From NCBI GenBank assembly GCA_963816215.1, contig CAWFKB010000003.1:6839-70838 (forward strand): a stretch of DNA of 64,000 bases. Reading direction: 5' to 3'. The DNA is from an uncultured Chloroflexia bacterium (GTDB lineage Bacteria; Chloroflexota; Limnocylindria; QHBO01). Of the stretch, positions 28,351-40,905 are shown in pieces; positions within the stretch are counted from its first letter, which is position 1, and every line of letters begins with the position of its first letter. The notes beneath the pieces were generated by a model. That model had not been told where the DNA came from and searched no databases. It saw only the letters and a list, made by a program, of their open reading frames with translations. The position numbers and the translations under genes were made by a program.

Positions 28351-28722
28351 GTGGGCACTCCGGCGGAGCCGCTTGTCTATTGCCTGACCCGCGACCACGA
28401 CCTGGCCGCGATGCTCGACGAGCGCCTGACCGGGGCACTGGTCTTCTTCTACAACGACGCGGCGCGGCTCCACCAGGCCATCGTCTTGCGGGTCCCGACC
28501 GTGGTCGTGATCGACACCGGAGCGGTGCGGGCGGAGTTTGGCGACGCCGGCCTGGGACCGGTGGTGGCGTTCGTCCGCGAGCGGGCGGCCGAGGCCCGGA
28601 TCGCCGTCCGGCCGGGTCCGGGTGCCGAGTGGCTGGTGGGCGCGGAGGCGGGCGTGGGGGTCGTGATGCTGCCGGCCGCGGTCGCGCCGTGCGGGGAGGC
28701 GGTCGCCGCCCTTACCGGCTGA
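28351..28722 (+). CDS. Hypothetical protein (123 aa)
   Basis: High-GC3 open frame with no recognisable motif. Confidence 0.35.
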   Translation: MGTPAEPLVYCLTRDHDLAAMLDERLTGALVFFYNDAARLHQAIVLRVPTVVVIDTGAVRAEFGDAGLGPVVAFVRERAAEARIAVRPGPGAEWLVGAEAGVGVVMLPAAVAPCGEAVAALTG

Positions 28723-29060
28723 GTCGGCCGACCAGCCCGATCCGCCGGGGTGGCCAGTACCGCAAGAGCACCCGCCAGCGCACCGATGAGGCGGGCACGA
28801 GACCGAAGGTGCGCGAATCGGTGCTGTCGGGGTTGTCGCCCAGGATCGTGACCGCCCCGCCCTCCAGGGCCGCGACCCGCTTCACGAGCTCGCGATGCGG
28901 GGCGCGCGGGTCGGCGGCCAAGCACGATTTCACCGGGGAGCGGCGAGCGCCTCCGATAGGAGCGCGCCTCCACGATCAGCCGATCGCCCGGCTCCAGGGT
29001 GGGGACCATGGATCGACCAGTGACCGCCACCGCGTCGAGATCACGCAGGGCGCGCGACAT
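28712..29060 (-). pseudogene. sodX: Ni-SOD maturation protease SodX (S26 signal-peptidase family) interrupted by a 1-nt frameshift near 28900-28925
   Basis: Frame A gives TGRSMVPTLEPGDRLIVEARSYRRRSPLPGEIVL (the S26 SMxPT box). The adjacent frame continues AADPRAPHRELVKRVAALEGGAVTILGDNPDSTDSRTFGLVPASSVRWRVLLRYWP (the S26 KRV and GDN boxes). Removing one base in cttggcc restores VLAADP. Lies directly beside sodN. Confidence 0.65.
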
Positions 29061-29163: not shown

Positions 29164-29583
29164 TCAGTGGACCCTGGTCTTCTCGGGGCCGCCGGTGGAC
29201 TTCCACATCTCGTCGATGCGGTCGATGGCGGTCAGCAGGTCCTTGGCGGCCTGGACGTCAAGCGTCTGCTTCACCTTGGATGCCTGCTTGGTGGCCTGCC
29301 AGAACGCCTCGTGGAGGTCGGGATGGGCCTCGAGGTGCTCGGGCTTGAAGTAGTCGTGCCACAGGACGTCGAGATGGTGCTTCACGAGCTCGGCGCGCTC
29401 CTCCTTGAGGTGAATGCACCGGGCGCGGAACAGGGCGTCCTCGCTGGCGTCGTGCTTCTCGATGATGCGCAGGCACGATTCGGCCTCGATCCGGGCCTGT
29501 ACCGGGTCGTAGACCCCACATGGCAGGTCGCAGTGCGCGGCCACGTGGCGGGTGGGATGGATGAGTCGGCGAATGGTCAGCAT
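29164..29583 (-). CDS. sodN: Nickel superoxide dismutase precursor
   Basis: Ni-hook HCDLPCGVYDP directly after a 15-aa propeptide MLTIRRLIHPTRHVAA. Confidence 0.9.
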   Translation of the reverse strand: MLTIRRLIHPTRHVAAHCDLPCGVYDPVQARIEAESCLRIIEKHDASEDALFRARCIHLKEERAELVKHHLDVLWHDYFKPEHLEAHPDLHEAFWQATKQASKVKQTLDVQAAKDLLTAIDRIDEMWKSTGGPEKTRVH

Positions 29584-29622
29584 GGACCGATTGTGCCCCA
29601 CCGAGACCCCGTGAGCGAACGG

Positions 29623-30204
29623 TTAGAAGCGCGCGACCTGGTACTTCTGCACGGTCATGACCGTGACGGCGCCCAGCACGGTCAGGATGGACCCCACCAC
29701 TGCGACCCCCACCAGGTCCAGCGGGTAGTGGCTCGAGCCGGCCATGAAGAAGAGCATGGGGAACGACAGTGCGAAGTTGACACGCGAGGCGAAGAGGGCG
29801 TTGCGCGGCCATTTCGGATCCGGGGGCTGGCCCGCCTTCATGGCGGCCAGCACGCGGCGCTGGTTGGGCCAGATCACCATCCAGACGTTGGCCAGCATGA
29901 TCACGCCCAGGAGGCCGCCGAAGAAGATCGTGATCTCGGTCCTGCTGCTGAACAGGTCCCCATCCTGCCAGTACAGGCCGTAAATCAGCAGCAGTCCCGC
30001 GGTCACGGTGACGACCGCCGACCAGCGGAACCACGCCAGGGCCCGGGTGAACAGCGGCGGGTTGACCTGCCCCTTGACCGATGCGTCCAGGACCCGCTGG
30101 AACGGGATGTTCACGAGGTTGAACCAGTAGAGCAGCCCGATCCAGGTGATACCGGCCACGAAATGCACCCAGCGGATGCCGATCAGGACCTCGGGCGTGA
30201 ACAC
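29623..30204 (-). CDS. Hypothetical integral membrane protein (4-5 TM)
   Basis: Trp-rich TM helices. No family assigned. Confidence 0.5.
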   Translation of the reverse strand: MFTPEVLIGIRWVHFVAGITWIGLLYWFNLVNIPFQRVLDASVKGQVNPPLFTRALAWFRWSAVVTVTAGLLLIYGLYWQDGDLFSSRTEITIFFGGLLGVIMLANVWMVIWPNQRRVLAAMKAGQPPDPKWPRNALFASRVNFALSFPMLFFMAGSSHYPLDLVGVAVVGSILTVLGAVTVMTVQKYQVARF

Positions 30205-30212
30205 GGGTGCCC

Positions 30213-30968
30213 TCAGTTCCCCATCACGATGCCGCCGTCCACGCCCAGCACCTGGCCGGTCAGGAAGCGGGCCTCGTCGCTGGCGAAGAAGACGGCGGCG
30301 GCAGCCACGTCGTCCACGGTGGCCAGGCCGCCGAGCGGCGTGATCTGGAGGATGGCCTCGCGCGCGGCGTCGGACAGGGTGTTCAGGATGTCGGTCTCGA
30401 CCAGTCCGGGGGCGATGGCGTTGCAGGTGACGTTTCGGCTGGCCAGCTCGCGCGCCGTGGTCTTGGTCAGACCGATGAGCCCCGCCTTGGCGGCCACGTA
30501 GTTCGCCTGGCCCACGTTGCCCATCCGTCCGGCCACGCTCGACATGTTGATGATCCGCCCGTATCGGGCCTTCATCATCGGACGCGAGACGGCCTTGGTC
30601 ATCCAGAACGGCCCGGACAGGTTGGTCGCAATGACCGCATCCCAGTCCTCCGGATCCATTCGCATGATCAGGTCGTCGCGGGTGATGCCCGCGTTGTTGA
30701 CCAGGATGTCGACCTTCTCAAACGCCTCCAAGGCGGCCTTCACGATCGCGTCGCACGCATCCCGACCGTCGGCGGTGCTGCCCTGGATGGCGACCGCCCG
30801 ACGGCCCATGGCGGTGATCTCGGCCACCACGGCCTTCGCGCCCGCGGCGCTTTCGCGATAGTTCACCGCCACGTCAGCCCCCTGGCGGGCGAACGCCAGC
30901 GCGATCGCGCGCCCGATGCCCCGGCTGCCGCCGGTGACGAGCGCTGTGCGGCCGGTCAGGTCAAACAT
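30213..30968 (-). CDS. fabG: 3-oxoacyl-[ACP] reductase
   Basis: TGGSRGIGRAIA Rossmann motif and NNAG. Catalytic YxxxK present as YVAAK. Confidence 0.9.
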   Translation of the reverse strand: MFDLTGRTALVTGGSRGIGRAIALAFARQGADVAVNYRESAAGAKAVVAEITAMGRRAVAIQGSTADGRDACDAIVKAALEAFEKVDILVNNAGITRDDLIMRMDPEDWDAVIATNLSGPFWMTKAVSRPMMKARYGRIINMSSVAGRMGNVGQANYVAAKAGLIGLTKTTARELASRNVTCNAIAPGLVETDILNTLSDAAREAILQITPLGGLATVDDVAAAAVFFASDEARFLTGQVLGVDGGIVMGN

Positions 30969-32044
30969 CAGGCGCTCCCCGCCGTGACCGGCTCGCGCTG
31001 GGGCTGGCCGGCGCGGGTCTGCTCCCCGGGGGCCAGGAACGCGCGCAGCGGATCCGCGGTCCACTCGACCACCGCGGCGCCGGCGGTGTAGCCCGAGCCA
31101 AAGGCCCCCATCAGGATCCGGTCTCCCTCGTGGACGCGGCCCGCGGCGACGGCCTCGGTGAGCGCCATGGGAACGGAGGCGGCCGACGTGTTGCCGTATC
31201 GGTCGATGTTCACGAAGACCTTGTCCGGCGGAACGTTCAGCAGCTCGCGGACGGTGTCGAGAATCCGCATGTTGGCCTGGTGGTAGAGGAACAGGTCGAC
31301 GTCGCCAATCCGCAGACCGGCATTGGCGACAGCCGCCTGGGTGGTGTCGGCCAGCTGGCGGGTGGCATAGCGATAGACCTCCTTGCCCGCCATGCGCATG
31401 AAATGCAGCCGGTCTGCGACCGTCTGGGCCGTGGCCGGGTGGGCCGTCCCCCCGCCGGGGATGATGATCCCCTCGGCTCCGGTGCCGTCGCTGTACAGCT
31501 GGAAGCCCAGCAATCCGCCGGGCTGGTCGGACGCGGACAGGACGACGGCCCCCGCCCCGTCGCCGAAGAGCACGCACGTGTTCCGATCGGTCCAGTCCAG
31601 GTAGCGGCTCAGGAGGTCCACCCCCACCACCAGCACGTTGCGGTACATGCCGCTGCCCACGAAGCTCGCCCCGGCCGCGAGGCCGAAGACGAATCCCGAG
31701 CACGCGGCGTTGAGGTCAAAGCCAGCCGCGTTGGTGGCGCCCAGGTCCCGGGCCACGAGCACGCCAGTGGCCGGCATGAGGTAGTCGGGGCTCGCGGTGG
31801 CCACGATCACCAGGTCCACGTCCGCCGGATCGAGGCCGGCCACGGCCAGCGCATCGCGGCTGGCATTGGTGGCCAGGGTGGCGGTGGTCTCGTCGTCGGC
31901 GGCGATGCGCCGTTCGCGGATCCCGGTTCGGCTCCGGATCCACTCGTCGGACGTATCGACGATTCGCGACAGGTCGTCGTTGGTCATGACCCGGGCCGGG
32001 GCATACATCCCCCATCCGGTGATCACGGTGTGGGGAGACGTCAC
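30968..32044 (-). CDS. fabH: Beta-ketoacyl-[ACP] synthase III
   Basis: Active-site ACSGF Cys, and the HQAN and GNTSAASVP motifs. Confidence 0.9.
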   Translation of the reverse strand: MTSPHTVITGWGMYAPARVMTNDDLSRIVDTSDEWIRSRTGIRERRIAADDETTATLATNASRDALAVAGLDPADVDLVIVATASPDYLMPATGVLVARDLGATNAAGFDLNAACSGFVFGLAAGASFVGSGMYRNVLVVGVDLLSRYLDWTDRNTCVLFGDGAGAVVLSASDQPGGLLGFQLYSDGTGAEGIIIPGGGTAHPATAQTVADRLHFMRMAGKEVYRYATRQLADTTQAAVANAGLRIGDVDLFLYHQANMRILDTVRELLNVPPDKVFVNIDRYGNTSAASVPMALTEAVAAGRVHEGDRILMGAFGSGYTAGAAVVEWTADPLRAFLAPGEQTRAGQPQREPVTAGSA

Positions 32045-32478
32045 GACAATTTGACCTCGAACAGGGGCTGCTGGCGCTTCACCAGTGTCCCACTGTCGGC
32101 CAGGATCCGGCTGACGGTGCCCGCGACGTCGGACTTGATCTCGTTGAACAGCTTCATCGCCTCGATCAGCCCCACCACCTGGCCGGCCGACACCTCGCCG
32201 TTGAGCTGGACGTACGGGCGGGCGCCGGGCGACGGGGCGCCGTACCAGACACCGGTCAACGGAGCGGTGATGAACCGATGGCCGGGCGCCGGCTCGCCGA
32301 ACGGGCCGGAGGCCGCCGGTGCACCCGCGGGAGCGGCCGCGGCAGCGAGCGCCGGTGCGCGGCGCTTGGCCAATCGCACGGTGATGCCGCCGGCCTCGAC
32401 CTCCAGCTCGTCCAGGTCGCTCTCCGCGAACGGCCCGGTGAGCGCGTCAACCGCGGCAAGGATGGGATCGGTGTCCAT
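32041..32478 (-). CDS. accB: Acetyl-CoA carboxylase biotin carboxyl carrier protein (canonical, with biotinyl-Lys)
   Basis: GLIEAMKLFNEI biotinylation motif and a C-terminal hammerhead domain. Confidence 0.85.
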   Translation of the reverse strand: MDTDPILAAVDALTGPFAESDLDELEVEAGGITVRLAKRRAPALAAAAAPAGAPAASGPFGEPAPGHRFITAPLTGVWYGAPSPGARPYVQLNGEVSAGQVVGLIEAMKLFNEIKSDVAGTVSRILADSGTLVKRQQPLFEVKLS

Positions 32479-32482
32479 GCGG

Positions 32483-33778
32483 TCAGTCGCCGTCCCAGCG
32501 CCGAAAGACGAGCGTGGCGTTGTGCCCGCCGAAGCCGAAGGCGTTGCTCATCGCCGTCTCGATGGGAACCTGACGCGCCACGTTGGGGACGTAGTCGAGG
32601 TCGCACTCGGGGTCGGGGTTGTCGAGGTTGATGGTGGGCGGAATCGTGCCCGTCTCGAGCGCCCGGACGCAGGCGACGGCCTCGATCCCACCGCCGGCGC
32701 CCATGAGGTGCCCGGTCATGGACTTGGTGCTGCTGATCGGGACCGTGTAGGCATCGGCCTCGAAGACGGTCTTGATGGCTGCCGTCTCGGCCGGGTCGTT
32801 GGGCGGGGTGGAGGTGCCGTGGGCATTGATGTACCCCAGTTCCCCCGGGGCGAGGCCGGCGTCGGCGAGGGCAATCCGCATGCTGGCCGCGGCCCCGCGA
32901 CCGCCCGGAGCGGGAAGGGTCACGTGCGATGCGTCGTCGGAGGCGCCGTAACCGATGAATTCGGCCCGGATGGTCGCCCCGCGGGCGTGCGCGTGCTCGA
33001 GGTCCTCGAGGACCAGCATCCCGGCCCCGTCGGCGATCACAAACCCGTCGCGATCCGCGTCAAAGGGGCGCGAGGCTCGCGTTGGCTGGTCGTTGCGCTT
33101 GGTGGAAAGTGCCCGCATGGCGCAGAACGCGGCGACCACCATCTCGCAGATGGCGGCCTCGGAACCGCCGGCCACCATGACGTCGGCGTCGCCGCGGCGG
33201 ACGATCCCCAACGCCTCGCCCAGGGCGTGGTTGCTCGAGGCGCAGGCGCTGACCGTGGCGTAGTTCGGGCCGCGCAGGTTGGCGGCGATGGCCACGTGCC
33301 CGGCGGCTGTGTCGGGAATCATGTTCAGCAGGGCGAAGGGGCTGACCCGGTCATAGCCCTCGACCGCGGCTTCCTGCGCGTCGCGGACGAGCGAGGTCAC
33401 TCCACCAATGCCGGTGGCCACGATGGCCCCGATCCGCTCCGCTTCCTCGTCTGCCACGACCGGGAAGGCGATGCCGGCATCGGTCAGGGCCTGCGACGCC
33501 GCGGCCCAGGCGTAGTGGACGTACCGGTCGTGGCGGCGGACGTCCTTGCGGTCCATGACGGTTGTGGGGTCGAAGTCCTTGACCTCGCCGCCCACCTGGG
33601 ATGGGACGCGGGACGGATCGAACGATTGAATCCGGTCCAGCCCGCTTCGGCCGGCGACCAGGCCGTCCCAGTAGGTCGCCACGTCATTGCCGAGCGGCGT
33701 GACAGCGCCCAGGCCGGTGACCACCACCCGGCGCTCGCCTCGTTCCTGCGAACTGCGCTGCGGGGACCGATCAACCAC
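32483..33778 (-). CDS. fabF: Beta-ketoacyl-[ACP] synthase II
   Basis: Active-site Cys in SACASS, and the HGTSTP and GHNAT motifs. Confidence 0.9.
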
Positions 33779-34271
33779 CGGCTGCGCGGCTCCCGCCCAG
33801 ATCCTGATCGCGGGGCATGATGAAGGAGAGGAGGGCCTCGACCGCGACCTCGCCCTCGACCGTGGCCACGGCGCGGGCGCGTCCCGAGACGCGGCCCAGC
33901 TTCTCGACCGTGATCTCGAGGCGCAGCGTATCGCCCGGAATCACGATTCGTCGGAAGCGGCATTCGTCGATGCCGGCAAAGAGGATGAGCCGGCCCCGGT
34001 TCTCCGGGGCGGCCAGGATCGCGACGCAGCCGGTCTGGGCCAGCGACTCGACGAGGAGGACGCCGGGCATGATCGGGCGGCCGGGGAAGTGGCCCGTGAA
34101 CTGCGGTTCGTTGGCGGTGACGTTGCGGATGGCCACCACCCGCTGACCGGGCTCGACCTCCACCACACGGTCGATGAGCAGGAACGGGTAGCGGTGGGGC
34201 AGGATCTCCATGATGTCGGCCGCCTCCCAGGGGAGCGGCGGCAGGGTGGAATCGGGCGTTTCGGTCGTCAT
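33771..34271 (-). CDS. fabZ: 3-hydroxyacyl-[ACP] dehydratase
   Basis: [13 protein letters not shown] and [13 protein letters not shown]. Confidence 0.9.
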
Positions 34272-34279
34272 CGGTCCTC

Positions 34280-35644
34280 TCAGGCGGGCTCGCCCACGAA
34301 GGCGGCGGCGCCGACGCGGTCGAGCATGTTGGTGCTGACCTCCGCCCCCACGAAGGCCGCATTGTCAACGATCCCTCGATGGAAGGGGAGGTTGGTCTTC
34401 ACGCCCTCGACCGTGGTCTCGGCCAGGGCGCGGCGGGCTCGGGCGAGGGCTTCGGTGCGCGTCTCGCCCCACACCACGAGCTTGGCCAGGAGCGAGTCGT
34501 AGTACGGCGGGATCTCGTAGCCGGGATACAGGTGGGTGTCCACCCGAACACCCGCTCCGCCAGGCCACTGCACGTCGGTCACCACGCCGGTCTGCGGAGA
34601 GAAGTTGTCGAGCGGGTCCTCGGCGGTGATCCGGAACTCGATTGCATGGCCGCGCAGCTGGACCTGCTCCTGGTTCAGGAGCAGCCGTTCTCCCGCCGCG
34701 ATCCGGATCTGCTCGGCCACGAGGTCCACCCCGGTCAGCATCTCGGTCACCGGGTGCTCGACCTGGATCCGGCAGTTGATCTCGATGAAGAAGAAGTTGC
34801 CCTCGCGGTCGAGGAGGAACTCGAGCGTGCCCATGTTCTCGTAGCCAGCGGAGACGACCGAGCGGATGGCGAGGTCCCGCAGCCGCTCACGGGCGGGCTC
34901 GGTCATGGCCGGCGACGGCCCCTCCTCGATGAGCTTCTGATGCCGGCGCTGGACCGAGCAGTCGCGCTCGCCCAGGTGGATGCCGTTCCCATGGCTGTCG
35001 ATCAGGACCTGGACCTCGACGTGGCGGTTCTCCTCGATCCACCGCTCGAAATACAGCGAGTCATCCCCGAACGCGGCGCGGGCCTCCGACTTGGCCAGGG
35101 GCAGTGACGTCTCCATCTCGCGCGGGGAGCGGACGAGGCGCATCCCTCGGCCGCCCCCGCCGGCCGAGGGCTTGAGCAGGACCGGGTAGCCGGCGGCCTC
35201 GGCCTGGGCCAGGGCGTCGGCCAGGTCGGCGACGATCCCGGTGCTGCCCGGGACGGTGGGCAGGCCAGTGGCGGCGAGCATCCGGCGGACGGCGTACTTG
35301 GAGGCGAACCGCTCGATGACGTGTGCGGGTGGACCGATGAACACCAGGTCGTGCGCGGCGCAGGCCTCGGCGAAGGAGGCGTCCTCCGACAGGAAGCCGT
35401 AGCCGGGATGGATGGCGTCGCAACCGGTGATGAGTGCCGCGCTGATGAGCGCCGGCTGGTTCAGGTATGACCGCCGGGCCTCTGCCGGACCGATGCAGAT
35501 GGCCTCGTCGGCCTGCTGGACGGCCATGGACTCACGGTCGGGCTCGCTGAATGCGACCACGGCCGGGATCCCCAGCTCGCGACAGGTGCGCAGGATGCGG
35601 ACCGCGATCTCGCCCCGGTTGGCAACCAGGATCTTGGCGAACAT
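34280..35644 (-). CDS. accC: Acetyl-CoA carboxylase biotin carboxylase subunit
   Basis: Start at [19 protein letters not shown]-grasp motifs. Confidence 0.9.
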
Positions 35645-36114
35645 CAGGCTCCGGACCCGTCGCCCGAGCCACGCTCGAGCTCGATCAGGAGCTGCCCGTA
35701 CTCCACCGGCTCCCCGCTTTCCGCCACCAGGTGGCGGACGACCCCCACCGCGCTGGCCCGCACTTCGTGGCGAATGCCGAGCATCTCCACGTACCCGACC
35801 TCGGTCCCCGGGCCCACGGCGAGGCCCGGTCCCAGGCCATCGGCGTACACGAAATGGCCCACCGCGGGGGACTTCAGCTGGTCGAGTGTCGTCACGGCCG
35901 CGGGCGCGGGATCCGTCGCGCTCGGCCGGGTGACAGTGACGTCGACCCCCGAACCGGATCCCGATGGCGATTTCTCGACCGCCACCACCCGGACCCGGAT
36001 GTCGCCCTGCCGGACCTCGATCTCGCCCAGGCCCAGGCGGTTCAGGCGTTCGGTAAGAGGAGGGACCAGGTCGGCGGCGGCGCGCGCGATGGCCTTGGCC
36101 GGATCGTCGCTCAT
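35644..36114 (-). CDS. BCCP-like protein (AccB paralog) lacking the biotinyl-lysine: EAMKM replaced by EMLG
   Basis: Full AccB architecture, SPAVGHFV ... VAESGEPVEYGQLLIELE. The biotinyl position reads VGYVEMLGIRHEV, with Gly where Lys should be. There is no Lys anywhere in the biotinyl domain. Sits in the canonical accB slot, ATGA-coupled to accC. Confidence 0.75.
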   Translation of the reverse strand: MSDDPAKAIARAAADLVPPLTERLNRLGLGEIEVRQGDIRVRVVAVEKSPSGSGSGVDVTVTRPSATDPAPAAVTTLDQLKSPAVGHFVYADGLGPGLAVGPGTEVGYVEMLGIRHEVRASAVGVVRHLVAESGEPVEYGQLLIELERGSGDGSGA

Positions 36115-37094
36115 GCACCCTCCTCGTCGAGATCGTCCTCATCGGTCTCCGGAGCCTGAGCCCCAGCCGGGAGCCCCAGCAGGCGCCCCAGCCGCTCCCC
36201 GAAGGAGGGCGAAGGACCCCGAAGAGCCTCGGCCTCCAGCTCGAGGACGGTGCCGATGGTGCGCAGCCGAGCATAGCGAGCCGCGCGCAAATCGTCGGGA
36301 GCGAGCCGATCCAGGCGGGCCAGCGATCCGAGGATGGCCTGTTTGATGGCCGCCGCGGTCGCCGGAAGATCGGTATGGGCGCCATCGGGCGGCTCGTCGA
36401 TCACGCCGTCCACGATCCCCAGCGCGTGCTGCTCGGCGGCGGTCATCTTCATGGCGGCGGCGGCGCGGGGTGCCGCGTCGGCCGAGCGCCACAGGATGGC
36501 CGCGCAGCCTTCGGGCGAGATGACCGAGTAGACCGCGTTCTCAAGGGCCAGGACCTCGTCCCCCACCCCGATGGCCAGCGCCCCGCCGGATCCGCCCTCC
36601 CCCACGATCACGACCACGACCGGAACCCGGAGCCCGGTCATGAGCCGGATGGAGCTGGCGATGGCTTCGGCCTGGCCTCGCTCCTCGGCGGCAGGCCCGG
36701 GGAATGCACCGGCGGTGTCGAGGAACGTGATGAGGGGCACACCGATACGGTCGGCGAGGCGCATCAGGCGCTGCGCCTTGCGGAAGCCTTCGGGCATGGG
36801 CGAGCCGAAGTTCCGGAAGATGTTCGACTCGGTATCGGTGCCTTTCTGGTGTCCGATGACCATGATCGCCCGGCCGTCCAGGAGAGCGGGGCCACCCACC
36901 ATGGCCGGGTCATCGCGGAAGGTCCGATCGCCGTGGAGCTCGACGAACTCGTCGAACATCTGCGCGACCAGGGACAGGGTTCGCGGACGCTGGGGGTGGC
37001 GCGCCAGCTGGACGCGGCGCCAGGCCGCCTCGGCGGCCTCCTGCGTGACCTCGGGCGGGCTGGGCTGGACGGTCATCTCGGTCGTCTCGGTCAT
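36111..37094 (-). CDS. accA: Acetyl-CoA carboxylase carboxyltransferase subunit alpha
   Basis: AccA core motifs across the gene. Confidence 0.85.
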   Translation of the reverse strand: MTETTEMTVQPSPPEVTQEAAEAAWRRVQLARHPQRPRTLSLVAQMFDEFVELHGDRTFRDDPAMVGGPALLDGRAIMVIGHQKGTDTESNIFRNFGSPMPEGFRKAQRLMRLADRIGVPLITFLDTAGAFPGPAAEERGQAEAIASSIRLMTGLRVPVVVVIVGEGGSGGALAIGVGDEVLALENAVYSVISPEGCAAILWRSADAAPRAAAAMKMTAAEQHALGIVDGVIDEPPDGAHTDLPATAAAIKQAILGSLARLDRLAPDDLRAARYARLRTIGTVLELEAEALRGPSPSFGERLGRLLGLPAGAQAPETDEDDLDEEGA

Positions 37095-38056
37095 CGGCCG
37101 CCACCAGCCGGTCGGCCGGGCGTGACATCGGTGTCGATGCCGGCTGTTTCGCTGACCGCCCCGCCGACGCGCTGGGCCAGGCCCTGGAGCATGCCGATGG
37201 GTCGAATCGCCCGGCGATCGGTGCTGTCGGACTGACCCGCGACCGGGAGCACACGGACGAGGCGCGCGACCGTCGCGCGGAGCTGGGTGCGGGGCACGAT
37301 CACGTCCACGAACCCGTGCTCCATGAGGCGCTCGGCGCTCTGGAAGCCATCGGGAAGCTCCTCCCCCACCGTTCCACTGGCCACCCGCGCTCCGGCGAAC
37401 CCGACCAGGGCCCGTGGTTCGGACAGGACGACGTCTCCCAGCGACGCAAAGCTGGCCAGCACGCCCCCGGTCGTGGGATCGGTGAGGATGCTGATGAACG
37501 GGATGCCGGCCTCGTTCAAGCGCTCGAGAGCGGCCGTCGTCTTGGCCAGCTGGAGGAGCGAGATCGTCCCTTCCTGCATCCGGGCTCCGCCGGAGGCGCT
37601 GACCACGATGGCCGGGATCCGCTCGGCGAGGGCGGCCTCGAAGCAGCGCGCCACCTTCTCGCCCACCACACTGCCCATGGATCCGCCCATGAACCGGAAG
37701 TCGAACAGACCGATGGCGACGCGCTCGCCCTCGATCTTGCCGATGCCCCAGATGGCGGCCTCGGGCAGCCCGGACCGGACCCGCGAGGATTCCAGGCGCT
37801 CGGGGTAGGGCTTGCTGTCCACGAAGCCGAGCGGGTCACCGCTGACCAGGTTCGCGTCGCGCTCCTCGAAGGTGCCGTGGTCGATGAGCAACTCGATCCG
37901 CTCGACGGCCGACAGGCGGAAGTGGTGGCCGCAGGTCGGGCATACCCGCTGGGCCCGCTCCAACTGACGGTTGAACAGCTGGTTCTCGCACACGGGGCAC
38001 TTGGTCCACGCGTCGGTGGGGCCCGTGCGCCGGCTGAAGGGAAACTTGATCTTCAT
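37091..38056 (-). CDS. accD: Acetyl-CoA carboxylase carboxyltransferase subunit beta
   Basis: N-terminal Zn finger CPVC...CPTCG, and a CT-beta core. Confidence 0.85.
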   Translation of the reverse strand: MKIKFPFSRRTGPTDAWTKCPVCENQLFNRQLERAQRVCPTCGHHFRLSAVERIELLIDHGTFEERDANLVSGDPLGFVDSKPYPERLESSRVRSGLPEAAIWGIGKIEGERVAIGLFDFRFMGGSMGSVVGEKVARCFEAALAERIPAIVVSASGGARMQEGTISLLQLAKTTAALERLNEAGIPFISILTDPTTGGVLASFASLGDVVLSEPRALVGFAGARVASGTVGEELPDGFQSAERLMEHGFVDVIVPRTQLRATVARLVRVLPVAGQSDSTDRRAIRPIGMLQGLAQRVGGAVSETAGIDTDVTPGRPAGGGR

Positions 38057-38423: not shown

Positions 38424-39017
38424 TTACAGGTCGGCTCGGTCCAGCTCGGCGGCAAGGTCGGCCAGGGCCCGATGGAGCAGAACCCGGGCGGCTCCAGGGC
38501 TACGATCGAGCACCGCGCCGATCTCGCGCGAGGACAGGCCATCCACGAAGCGCAGGACGATCACCTGGCGACGCTCGGCCGGGATGCGGGCCAATGCCTC
38601 GCGGACGGCGCGCGAACGATCGGCGCCGGCCACGACCGCGGCCGGATCGGCTCCGGGGGCGTGCGGCTCCGCGATGGACTCGATGGGCTCGGTCCGGCGA
38701 CGCGCGCGCGAGCGATGCGCATTGGCAATGGCGTTGTGCGCGATCCGGAACAGCCAGGCCCGGAACGTCGATCCATCGTCGCGGTAGCGACCGATGGCGG
38801 CGAGCGCCGACAGGAAGGTCCGCTCGGTGACGTCTTCCGCCTCGTGGTGGTCGCCCAGCTGGTAGAACGCATAGCTGTAGACCCGATCCACGTAGCGCCG
38901 GTAGAGCTGGTCGAAGGCGGCGGGGTCCACCTGGGCGGCGCGAACGTCGGCCAGGTCCGGATCACCGGTCTCCGGGGGCGTGAGGCGGAGGGCCTCGGGT
39001 CGCGGGTCGGCGTTCAC
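38424..39017 (-). CDS. ECF (sigma-70 family) RNA polymerase sigma factor
   Basis: Region 2 FDQLYRRYVDRVYSYAFYQLGDHHEAEDVTERTFLSAL and region 4 VIVLRFVDGLSSREIGAVLDRSPGAARVLLHRAL. GTG start overlaps the birA stop. Confidence 0.75.
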   Translation of the reverse strand: MNADPRPEALRLTPPETGDPDLADVRAAQVDPAAFDQLYRRYVDRVYSYAFYQLGDHHEAEDVTERTFLSALAAIGRYRDDGSTFRAWLFRIAHNAIANAHRSRARRRTEPIESIAEPHAPGADPAAVVAGADRSRAVREALARIPAERRQVIVLRFVDGLSSREIGAVLDRSPGAARVLLHRALADLAAELDRADL

Positions 39018-39829
39018 ACGCTCGCCCCCCGCGCGTGGACGCGGATGACCTCGCCCACGCTGATCGTCGTCTGGAACGCGGGACCGGTGAGCAGCAGACC
39101 CCCGGTGTCGGCCACGGGGCCGGCCACGCCGCTCAACCGGCCTGCGGGCGTCTCGACCTCGATCGCCTGTCCGGTGAGCCACGAAGCGGCCTGGAACCGG
39201 GCGAGCGGGGAGATGCCGGACTCGACCGCGCCGATCTCCTCGTCGAGGGACTCCAACAGCGCGGCCAGGAGGGCCACCCGGTCGACCGAGCTGCCCGCCT
39301 CGTCCGCCAGCGACGTCGCCCCGGGGGCGATGTCGGGCGGCATCGCGGAGCGCGCCCAGTTCACGTTGATCCCCATCCCGAGCACCGCGCTCACGAGCCG
39401 CTCGCCCTCGATCTGGGTTTCGGTCAGGAGGCCGGCCACCTTCAGGCCCTCGCTCGTCACCAGGTCGTTGGGCCAGCGGATATGGAGCTCGACCCAGGGG
39501 GACGCGGCCGCTCGCACGGCCAGGGCGGAGGCGGCACCCAGCCACCACGCCCGCTCCACGGGGAGATCCAGCTGCAGTCCCACGCTGACCAGCAGGTTCG
39601 CGCCCGCCGGGGACAGCCAGGCGCGACCCATCCGTCCGCGGCCCGCGAGCTGCCGATCGGCCACGACCGCCAGCCCATCCCCGCCCGGAGCTCCCAGCGC
39701 CTCGTGCGCGCGGTCGTTGGTGGACCCGATCTCGGCGTGGTACTCGACCACGTGCCCCAACCGGCGTCCGGCGCGCGCGGCACGCGACCACGCGGGGGTC
39801 GGCGAAGCGGCGAACACGAATTCAGACAC
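39014..39829 (-). CDS. birA: Biotin--[acetyl-CoA-carboxylase] ligase
   Basis: HVVEYHAEIGSTNDRA, RQLAGRGRMGRAW (the GRGRxG biotin-binding loop) and IRWPNDL. GTG start near 39829. Confidence 0.85.
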   Translation of the reverse strand: MSEFVFAASPTPAWSRAARAGRRLGHVVEYHAEIGSTNDRAHEALGAPGGDGLAVVADRQLAGRGRMGRAWLSPAGANLLVSVGLQLDLPVERAWWLGAASALAVRAAASPWVELHIRWPNDLVTSEGLKVAGLLTETQIEGERLVSAVLGMGINVNWARSAMPPDIAPGATSLADEAGSSVDRVALLAALLESLDEEIGAVESGISPLARFQAASWLTGQAIEVETPAGRLSGVAGPVADTGGLLLTGPAFQTTISVGEVIRVHARGASV

Positions 39830-39900
39830 GGCGGCCTCGGGTCCTCGAAAGGTGGCCGATTCTACCAGCCGTCGAAATCGGCTCCGGTACACTCGGCCGG

Positions 39901-40905
39901 ATGTCCGACCCTGCGTCGCGCGAACGCGTCTTCTCCGGCATCCAGCCCAGCGGCGCGAGCCACCTGGGCAACTATCTCGGCGCACAGCGAAACTACGTCG
40001 CGCTCCAGGACGAGTACGAGGCGATCTACGCCATCGTCGACTACCACGCCCTGACGACCGTCCACGACGGCGAGGAGCTGCGACGGCTCACCCGCGAGAT
40101 GGCGCTCGACCTGCTGGCCGTGGGCCTGGATCCCGACCGCTGCGCGCTCATTCGCCAATCGGACTTCCCCGAGGTGGCCGAGCTGTGCTGGATCTTCAGC
40201 ACCGTCGTGCCAGTCAGCTGGCTCCAGCGCAACCCCACCTACAAGGACGGGCTTGCGGAGGGCAAGGAGAACAGCAACGGACTGCTGACCTATCCGGTCC
40301 TCCAGGCGGCCGACATCGTCATCTACAAGGCCAGCCGGGTCCCGGTTGGCAAGGATCAGGCCCCGCACCTCGAGCTGTCACGCGAGATCGTGCGTGCCTT
40401 CAACCACCGATACGGACCGATCTTTCCGGAGCCCACCGCCGTCTTCACCGATGCGCCGGTCGTGCTCGGGACCGATGGCGTGCGCAAGATGAGCAAGTCC
40501 GCCAACAACACGATCCCGATCTTCGCCGAGCCCGACGAGATCCAGCGGATCGTGATGAACATGGTCACCGACCCCCAGCGCATCAAGCGCACCGATCCGG
40601 GCCGGCCCGAGGTGTGCAACGTGTGCCAGCTCCACCGGTACTTCGGCGGGGACTACCTCCAGATCCAGGACGGCGAGCGCACCGCGCGGACCGGGTGCGT
40701 GGACACCAAGGGGCTCCTGGCGGAGCGGATCATCGAGTTCTTCCGGCCCATGCGCGAGAAGCGTGCTGTGCTCGCGGCTGATCCGGGCATGGTGGAAGCG
40801 GTACTCTCGGCGGGCGCGGACAAGGTCCGGCCCATCCTCGAGGCGACCAGGGCCGAGGTCCTGGAGGCGGTCGGGACCGGGCGAGCGGGGCGGAGGACGT
40901 CGTGA
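39901..40905 (+). CDS. trpS: Tryptophan--tRNA ligase
   Basis: HIGH-class motifs GIQPSGASHLGNY and KMSKS. Confidence 0.9.
   Translation: MSDPASRERVFSGIQPSGASHLGNYLGAQRNYVALQDEYEAIYAIVDYHALTTVHDGEELRRLTREMALDLLAVGLDPDRCALIRQSDFPEVAELCWIFSTVVPVSWLQRNPTYKDGLAEGKENSNGLLTYPVLQAADIVIYKASRVPVGKDQAPHLELSREIVRAFNHRYGPIFPEPTAVFTDAPVVLGTDGVRKMSKSANNTIPIFAEPDEIQRIVMNMVTDPQRIKRTDPGRPEVCNVCQLHRYFGGDYLQIQDGERTARTGCVDTKGLLAERIIEFFRPMREKRAVLAADPGMVEAVLSAGADKVRPILEATRAEVLEAVGTGRAGRRTS

Follow-up and report, generated by a model that had tools for sequence, protein, structure and literature searches.

A lysine-less biotin carboxyl carrier protein paralog in the acetyl-CoA carboxylase operon of Limnocylindria, a candidate bacterial counterpart of plant BADC

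The acetyl-CoA carboxylase (ACC) operon present in a stretch of 64,000 nucleotides of DNA from an uncultured Chloroflexia bacterium of the lineage Limnocylindria (contig CAWFKB010000003.1, positions 6,839 to 70,838; hereafter, the window) contains, in addition to a canonical gene for the biotin carboxyl carrier protein (BCCP, the product of accB), a second gene encoding a BCCP-like protein, here called X, in which the biotinyl-lysine is replaced by glycine and the thumb of the biotinyl domain is deleted. Judging from its sequence, X is most likely a non-catalytic subunit of ACC. As an earlier, sequence-only reading of this DNA had proposed, its gene occupies the accB slot, between accA and accC. 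It overlaps both of these genes. Non-catalytic BCCP look-alikes have so far been viewed as a plant peculiarity whose role is disputed. A bacterial equivalent, encoded in an operon, conserved throughout a class and readily expressed in Escherichia coli, would be a minimal system for studying the function of a biotin-free BCCP.

The biotinyl domain of X

In a gapless comparison of the AccB of the window (VGLIEAMKLFNEIKSDVAGTV) with X (VGYVEMLGIRHEVRASAVGVV), the position of the biotinyl-lysine corresponds to Gly113 of X. The same assignment is obtained when the profile of the X family (149 members) is aligned with E. coli BCCP (4HR7_B, E=6e-20), in which VdvLGv pairs with VEAMKM and the LG of X stands opposite MK. 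Thus, the exchange of lysine for glycine first noticed in the window alone was confirmed by alignments with both homologs and E. coli BCCP. X contains only three lysines (K7, K48 and K81), all of them outside the biotinyl domain and none conserved; K81, immediately N-terminal to SPAVG, is T, R, S or A in homologs. The presence of the biotinyl motif elsewhere in the protein was rejected, taking into account that these lysines are not conserved and that the family profile aligns collinearly with E. coli BCCP. Because its domain has no lysine and the tip of its hairpin carries a glycine, X is predicted to be incapable of being biotinylated.

A sequencing or frameshift artefact was likewise rejected. 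The codon of Gly113, GGC, is three substitutions away from AAA or AAG, and so it cannot be a one-base sequencing error; moreover, 68 loci assembled independently of one another share the substitution, as do hundreds of proteins from metagenomes. The reading frame is intact, in agreement with the sequence-only reading. The hairpin that takes the place of the canonical one is the best-conserved segment within the X family, with the pattern [DEN]-x-L-G-[VI]; after LG, distant members read (R/P)Q(E/D)V instead of RH(E/D)V.

The second alteration of the domain is a deletion at the Gly93/Leu94 junction, where a gap of six residues in X faces PSPGAR (within PSPGARPY) in AccB and PSPDAK in E. coli BCCP. 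The alignments indicate that the thumb, a protrusion which packs against biotin and which multi-subunit ACCs typically have in their BCCPs, has been lost from X. In addition, X falls below the curated cut-offs of PF00364 (21.7 bits vs 22.1) and TIGR00531 (33.6 vs 115.2). The deletion and these scores contradict the full AccB architecture with which X had been credited, and 'hammerhead', the word used for its C-terminus, is not a recognised term for the biotinyl domain. Without lysine, without thumb and below the family score, X should not be filed as AccB. The loss of the thumb, together with the class-wide distribution of X described below, goes beyond what had been perceived in the window at first.

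The structure of X was modelled with AlphaFold2 (AF2). An alignment of 16 sequences gave a predicted local distance difference test score (pLDDT) of 60.7, and the final model, based on 149 sequences, reached a mean pLDDT of 78. At the N-terminus, a helix (residues 5-27) and two strands (31-36 and 39-45) form a motif that includes positions invariant among homologs, and the alignment of the family profile with E. coli BCCP starts at residue 28 of the latter and continues onward over its full length (4HR7_B). According to the model and the alignment, this motif would be equivalent to the oligomerisation and biotin carboxylase (BC) association motif located at the N-terminus of E. coli BCCP. It is followed by a disordered linker, variable in length and poorly conserved among homologs, whose pLDDT is <50 at residues 48-55 and 64-72. 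In distant, Limnocylindrales-type members (L056:9950-10573; P0140-P0267) this linker is greatly expanded, giving proteins of 180-340 aa vs the 156 aa of X, and both the N-terminal motif and the C-terminal domain are still conserved in them. The C-terminal domain (residues 80-150) has a pLDDT of 95-98 and was superposed by Foldseek on the E. coli domain 1BDO with a TMt of 0.83 and a root-mean-square deviation (rmsd) of 1.7 A. The best superposition was obtained with the thumbless BCCP of P. horikoshii (2EJF_C; TMt 0.91, rmsd 1.3 A).

Like canonical AccB (E. coli AccB, 1BDO and 4HR7; TIGR00531), X combines an N-terminal alpha/beta/beta motif, a Pro/Ala-rich linker and a C-terminal flattened beta-barrel; its gene lies directly upstream of accC, and the signatures SPxVG and GEPVEYGQ are common to both proteins. 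Unlike it, X presents Gly113 instead of lysine, [DE]xLG instead of EAMK, a deleted thumb and a score under the TIGR00531 cut-off, departures from which it follows that X would be unable to carry carboxybiotin. Its compact barrel is also similar to those of thumbless biotinyl domains, such as P. horikoshii BCCP (2D5D/2EJF) and the transcarboxylase 1.3S subunit (1DCZ), with TMt values of 0.85-0.91 and rmsd of 1.3-2.3 A; however, these proteins keep the lysine of AMKM and are biotinylated carriers. The free-standing BLAP of B. subtilis (1Z6H) is only a weak profile match to the X family (E=8.6e-4), and whereas this protein consists of a single domain with a modifiable lysine and has no BCCP N-terminal region, X possesses the N-terminal motif and the linker of BCCP and has no lysine in its domain. 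The fusion of BC to BCCP in Chloroflexus, with EAMKM intact, is a different solution (PMC11077971).

Operon position, distribution and descent

The start codon of X overlaps the stop codon of accA (ATGA), the ATG of accC overlaps the stop codon of X (TGATG), and a Shine-Dalgarno sequence, GAGGAGG, is placed 5 nt upstream of the ATG of X. These two overlaps and the strong Shine-Dalgarno sequence imply a translational coupling of X to both neighbours, and hence that it would be co-produced with the core subunits AccA and AccC. The start of translation of accB is separate and unrelated to that of X. The placement of X directly upstream of accC is kept in all the Limnocylindria loci, and the junction between both genes mostly measures from -1 to +3 nt in the loci where it could be measured, that is, those in which the AccC alignment starts at residue 1. 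The large 'gaps' seen in some other loci were discarded as artefacts resulting from partial local alignments.

All the members of the X family come from uncultured, metagenome-assembled genomes (MAGs). Glycine occupies the lysine position in each of the 120 best homologs, down to 55% identity, all of which read VEMLG[IV]RH[ED]V, the closest one (P0001) being 96% identical to X; a look-up of the exact X sequence gave no match. An exhaustive profile search over representatives clustered at 50% identity led to 386 clusters at E<=1e-10, and among the best 150 of these, 149 have the glycine; going down the matches, a canonical BCCP (ESMKL) is first met at rank 149. When loci were surveyed using one genome per GTDB species, 80 were returned, and the lysine-less form was present in 68 of them, labelled nearly always as Ca. 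Limnocylindria/Limnocylindrales, Chloroflexota or 'uncultured Chloroflexia', and including the genome CSP1-4 (L056). Limnocylindria is a class of soil and freshwater bacteria within the phylum Chloroflexota. Eleven loci from other phyla contain ordinary EAMK accB-accC pairs. The pairing of a canonical and a lysine-less accB in related genomes, suggested from the window, was borne out by the survey, since an EAMK accB also exists in every lysine-less locus whose downstream sequence extends for 5.5 kb or more (48/48).

In databases, X proteins are named 'acetyl-CoA carboxylase biotin carboxyl carrier protein' or 'biotin/lipoyl-containing protein'. The BCCP label is a systematic functional mis-annotation, which could mislead metabolic reconstructions of Limnocylindria. 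It has to be noted that the lysine-less gene is also found on contigs or proteins labelled as other phyla, namely Pleomorphomonadaceae (L001), Solirubrobacterales (L011), Dormibacteraeota (P0318) and Sulfotelmatobacter (P0346); these are few and short, and most likely reflect mis-binned MAG contigs rather than horizontal transfer. In the 'MFD' long-read MAG loci L079, L024, L030 and L050, the acc and fab open reading frames (ORFs) are fragmented, with several partial matches per gene, a picture typical of uncorrected indel errors and not of pseudogenisation.

The ratio of nonsynonymous to synonymous substitutions (dN/dS), calculated by the Nei-Gojobori method for 14 pairs of loci, ranges from 0.08 to 0.30 for X, from 0.08 to 0.28 for AccB (0.65 in one pair) and from 0.04 to 0.16 for AccC. 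Purifying selection thus acts on X to a degree similar to that seen for the true carrier. Across the 149 sequences, whose identity goes down to about 30%, 24 positions of X are conserved at 90% or more.

A neighbour-joining (NJ) tree, a distance-based reconstruction of a short protein (145 columns, 100 bootstraps), recovers X and the Limnocylindria AccB as monophyletic groups, each with a support of 100, and separates the two together from the outgroup BCCPs in 99 of the 100 bootstraps. X and AccB are sister clades with mirrored internal branching, and they therefore seem to have arisen by duplication at the base of the class, both copies then being inherited vertically. The ancestral residues are retained by them in a complementary fashion: of 51 columns conserved in the outgroup BCCPs, 14 are kept by both proteins, whereas X alone keeps 9 (the N-terminal RV, S..V..F in beta1 and the C-terminal E..EYG) and AccB alone another 12 (the thumb and E-A-M-K-L-x-N-E). 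Mapped by eye, the beta1 and C-terminal columns kept only by X correspond to its residues S82, V85, F88, E135 and E138-Y139-G140.

The AccB of Limnocylindria (32041..32478 in the window; loci L003-L074) also departs from the usual BCCP pattern. It has APLTG, not SPMVG, in its first strand, its C-terminus reads G(T/K)LVK(R/A)xQP vs the widespread GEPVEYGQ, its gene is located between fabF and fabH and not beside accC, and the window protein remains under the TIGR00531 cut-off.

Possible roles in acetyl-CoA carboxylase

In plants, the Arabidopsis proteins BADC1-3 are non-catalytic subunits of the plastid heteromeric ACCase, and they have been described as 'unique to the plant htACCase' (PMC11926652). 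The literature about them is divided between an inhibitor and an assembly 'glue' (PMC11926652), the latter role having been assigned by reconstitution and genetic work, as cited in that article. The analogy with BADC drawn in the sequence-only reading is apt, X being a motif-less BCCP look-alike beside a true BCCP. As in the plant system, X derives from BCCP, has no biotinylation motif or lysine, and coexists with a genuine BCCP; by analogy, X would be expected to join the subcomplex of BC and BCCP, and the same two disputed roles, inhibitor or assembly glue, can be considered for it. Unlike BADC, X is a bacterial protein whose gene lies in the acc operon itself, at the accB slot, with the apparent translational coupling to accA and accC, and it has lost the thumb as well. 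X is probably convergent with plant BADC and independent of it by descent, because its sister group is the Limnocylindria AccB (99/100 NJ bootstraps, in a tree containing no plant BADC). No report of a lysine-less bacterial BCCP in an acc operon, of BADC outside plants or of the ACC of Limnocylindria was found in the literature searched, and X may be regarded, by analogy, as a new, convergent and operon-embedded bacterial counterpart of BADC with an additional loss of the thumb.

Other non-catalytic subunits exist in bacteria. The epsilon subunits of Actinobacteria (AccE/PccE) are small 'glue' proteins that aid the assembly or activity of acyl-CoA carboxylases, and are mentioned as a precedent in PMC11926652. 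X, a BCCP paralog, resembles them only in the proposed non-catalytic glue role. To our knowledge, these epsilon subunits are unrelated to BCCP in sequence and fold.

In the tubes formed by E. coli ACC, the C-terminal domain of BCCP is located at a non-catalytic site of BC next to the N-terminus of AccD, and oligomers of the N-terminal alpha/beta/beta motifs, formed in the lumen, tether the carrier in transit (PMC11160672). Neither this 'parking' nor the N-terminal tethering needs biotin, and for this reason X is favoured as a dedicated structural BCCP. Thus, the preferred reading, which is plausible without being secure, is that X constitutes a non-catalytic subunit of a four-subunit ACC, originated from an accB duplicated at the base of the class and endowed with a structural role as a parked anchor. 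By subfunctionalisation, the tasks of the ancestral BCCP would have been divided between two copies, X taking the structural and AccB the catalytic ones. The N-terminal motif of X would co-oligomerise with that of AccB, and its C-terminal domain would sit in the parking site of BC beside the N-terminus of AccD. In this way X would glue BC to the carboxyltransferase (CT) and tether biotinylated AccB, which alone would shuttle between the active sites. A little more tentatively still, Limnocylindria could possess a five-protein ACC in which a biotin-free anchor, X, occupies the parking site formed by BC and AccD and nucleates the N-terminal oligomer, and AccB acts as the swinging carrier.

A structural role is supported by the fact that both the change of lysine to glycine and the deletion of the thumb are universal in the X family, and by the constant company of an EAMK AccB in the loci with enough flank. 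If the proposal is true, this split-BCCP ACC would be a natural experiment separating the two BCCP roles inferred from the E. coli filaments, as well as a convergent bacterial version of plant BADC, and X could be used to test the parking and N-terminal tethering roles proposed for BCCP in those filaments. Several points weigh against this reading. The hairpin, the most conserved part of X, could equally fit a protein that docks in the active sites of BC or CT as a competitor. If the role is structural, there is no explanation of why the ancestral arrangement with a single protein, adequate in E. coli, was given up. Furthermore, the outgroups of the tree that places the duplication at the base of the class come from other phyla and include no other classes of Chloroflexota.

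The first alternative is that X acts as a competitive negative regulator, according to the original model for BADC and to the 'built-in negative regulator' of the sequence-only reading. X would bind BC instead of holo-AccB, giving rise to dead-end BC-X or X-AccB complexes, and the X:AccB ratio would set the activity of ACC. X still has what is required to take up the sites of BCCP, namely the N-terminal motif and the fold of the domain, its best-conserved segment is the one that normally enters the active sites, and the distance of three genes between X and accB, which has its own translation start, would make the ratio tunable; in addition, an inhibition of ACCase by BADCs was suggested by in vivo work that PMC11926652 cites. 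However, a protein apparently made whenever the enzyme is made, being translationally tied to accA and accC, would be an odd design for a regulator. Moreover, X is kept throughout a deep class with no accessory character, neither a sensor domain nor a separate promoter was identified for it, and the inhibitor interpretation is disputed for BADC itself (PMC11926652). Inhibition by competition is thus a serious option, but an unlikely one. The earlier proposal stands as one possibility among others, while the coupling to accA and accC, the class-wide presence and the conservation of the N-terminal motif and of surface residues outside the hairpin are no less compatible with an obligate structural subunit. 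Although sequence alone cannot decide, a structural anchor is favoured over a pure inhibitor.

It is quite improbable that X acts outside catalysis and assembly, for instance by autoregulating the operon or by serving as a decoy or buffer that binds BirA and modulates the biotin ligase. In E. coli, the N-terminus of BCCP represses accBC, and the N-terminal motif of X is conserved, with birA upstream at a conserved position. Against this, BirA recognises the hairpin through the region of the acceptor lysine, a region changed in X; X has no feature indicative of DNA or RNA binding, and a function restricted to the N-terminus would leave the strong conservation of the whole C-terminal domain unexplained. 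Lastly, the idea that X is a decaying relic of an old accB, retained only as a frame coupling the translation of accA to that of accC, would agree with its faster evolution (51-57% identity to the window protein in loci at middle distance vs 58-67% for AccB) and with its scores under the curated cut-offs, but is disfavoured to the point of being scarcely credible by its low dN/dS and deep conservation, as well as by its confidently modelled fold and by the absence of any frameshifted or truncated lineage, evident assembly errors aside, among the 68 loci.

The operon and its neighbourhood

The order of genes on the minus strand is birA, a gene for a sigma factor of the extracytoplasmic function (ECF) type, a small ORF, accD, accA, X, accC, fabZ, fabF, accB, fabH and fabG (Table 1), and those from accD to fabG make up a single, tightly packed operon. 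The neighbours accD, accA and accC were assigned at or near equivalog level from their family profile scores. The full layout, from birA to fabG, is kept in related loci.

Table 1. Features of the acc-fab region and of protein X (window coordinates)
Feature	Coordinates	Strand	Evidence or remarks
fabZ-fabF-(accB)-fabH-fabG, downstream part of the operon	30213..34271	-	Gaps or overlaps at junctions <=8 nt
Canonical accB (EAMKL motif, thumb, N-terminal motif)	32041..32478	-	PF00364 49.1 bits; TIGR00531 95.2 bits
accC, biotin carboxylase	34280..35644	-	NF006367 645 bits
X, 156-aa BCCP-like ORF	35644..36114	-	ATG start, TGA stop, no internal stop
X residues 80-148, predicted biotinyl-domain fold without lysine or thumb	35671..35877	-	AF2, Foldseek
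Hairpin VEMLGIRHEV, in place of canonical IEAMKLFNEI	35761..35790	-	Alignments
Codon GGC of Gly113, biotinyl-lysine position	35776..35778	-	Alignments, codon reading
Six-residue deletion of the BCCP thumb (Gly93/Leu94 junction)	35835..35836	-	Gap opposite PSPGAR/PSPDAK
X residues 46-79, flexible Pro/Ala/Gly/Ser-rich linker	35878..35979	-	pLDDT, homolog alignment
X residues 5-45, predicted N-terminal alpha/beta/beta motif	35980..36102	-	AF2 model; alignment to E. coli BCCP residues 28-53
accA, carboxyltransferase alpha	36111..37094	-	NF004344 386 bits, above cut-off
accD, carboxyltransferase beta, N-terminal Zn ribbon	37091..38056	-	TIGR00515 344.6 bits; PF17848 Zn_ribbon_ACC
Small ORF, 109 aa	38061..38390	-	No family match; between the ECF sigma factor gene and accD
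ECF-type sigma factor	about 38424..39020	-	Sigma70_r2, r4_2; between birA and accD
birA, biotin-protein ligase	39014..39985	-	TIGR00121 131.5 bits; ~2 kb upstream of accD

Two of the positions given in the sequence-only reading have to be amended. The birA gene, which had been placed beside the operon, is separated from accD by two genes, those of the ECF sigma factor and the small ORF. The canonical EAMKL accB was correctly located between fabF and fabH, although its distance downstream of X has to be corrected, since it comes after three intervening genes (accC, fabZ and fabF).

The spacing of roughly 2 kb between birA and accD is conserved across related loci. Possibly, the 109-aa ORF located beside the ECF sigma factor gene encodes an anti-sigma factor, and this pair may regulate the acc-fab operon, a suggestion based on the conservation of that spacing.

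On the other side of the operon, fabG is directly followed by a gene (29623..30204, minus strand) whose product, a membrane protein, matches Urate_ox_N with 84.6 bits (PF06181). At 29164..29601, on the same strand, lies a gene for a nickel superoxide dismutase (Sod_Ni, 134 bits), with the motif HCDLPCGVYDP. Downstream of it, the ORF 28449..28850 (minus strand), without a Pfam match over the stretch tested, contains GRSMVPTLEPGDRL, which resembles a signal-peptidase-like SodX maturation protease.

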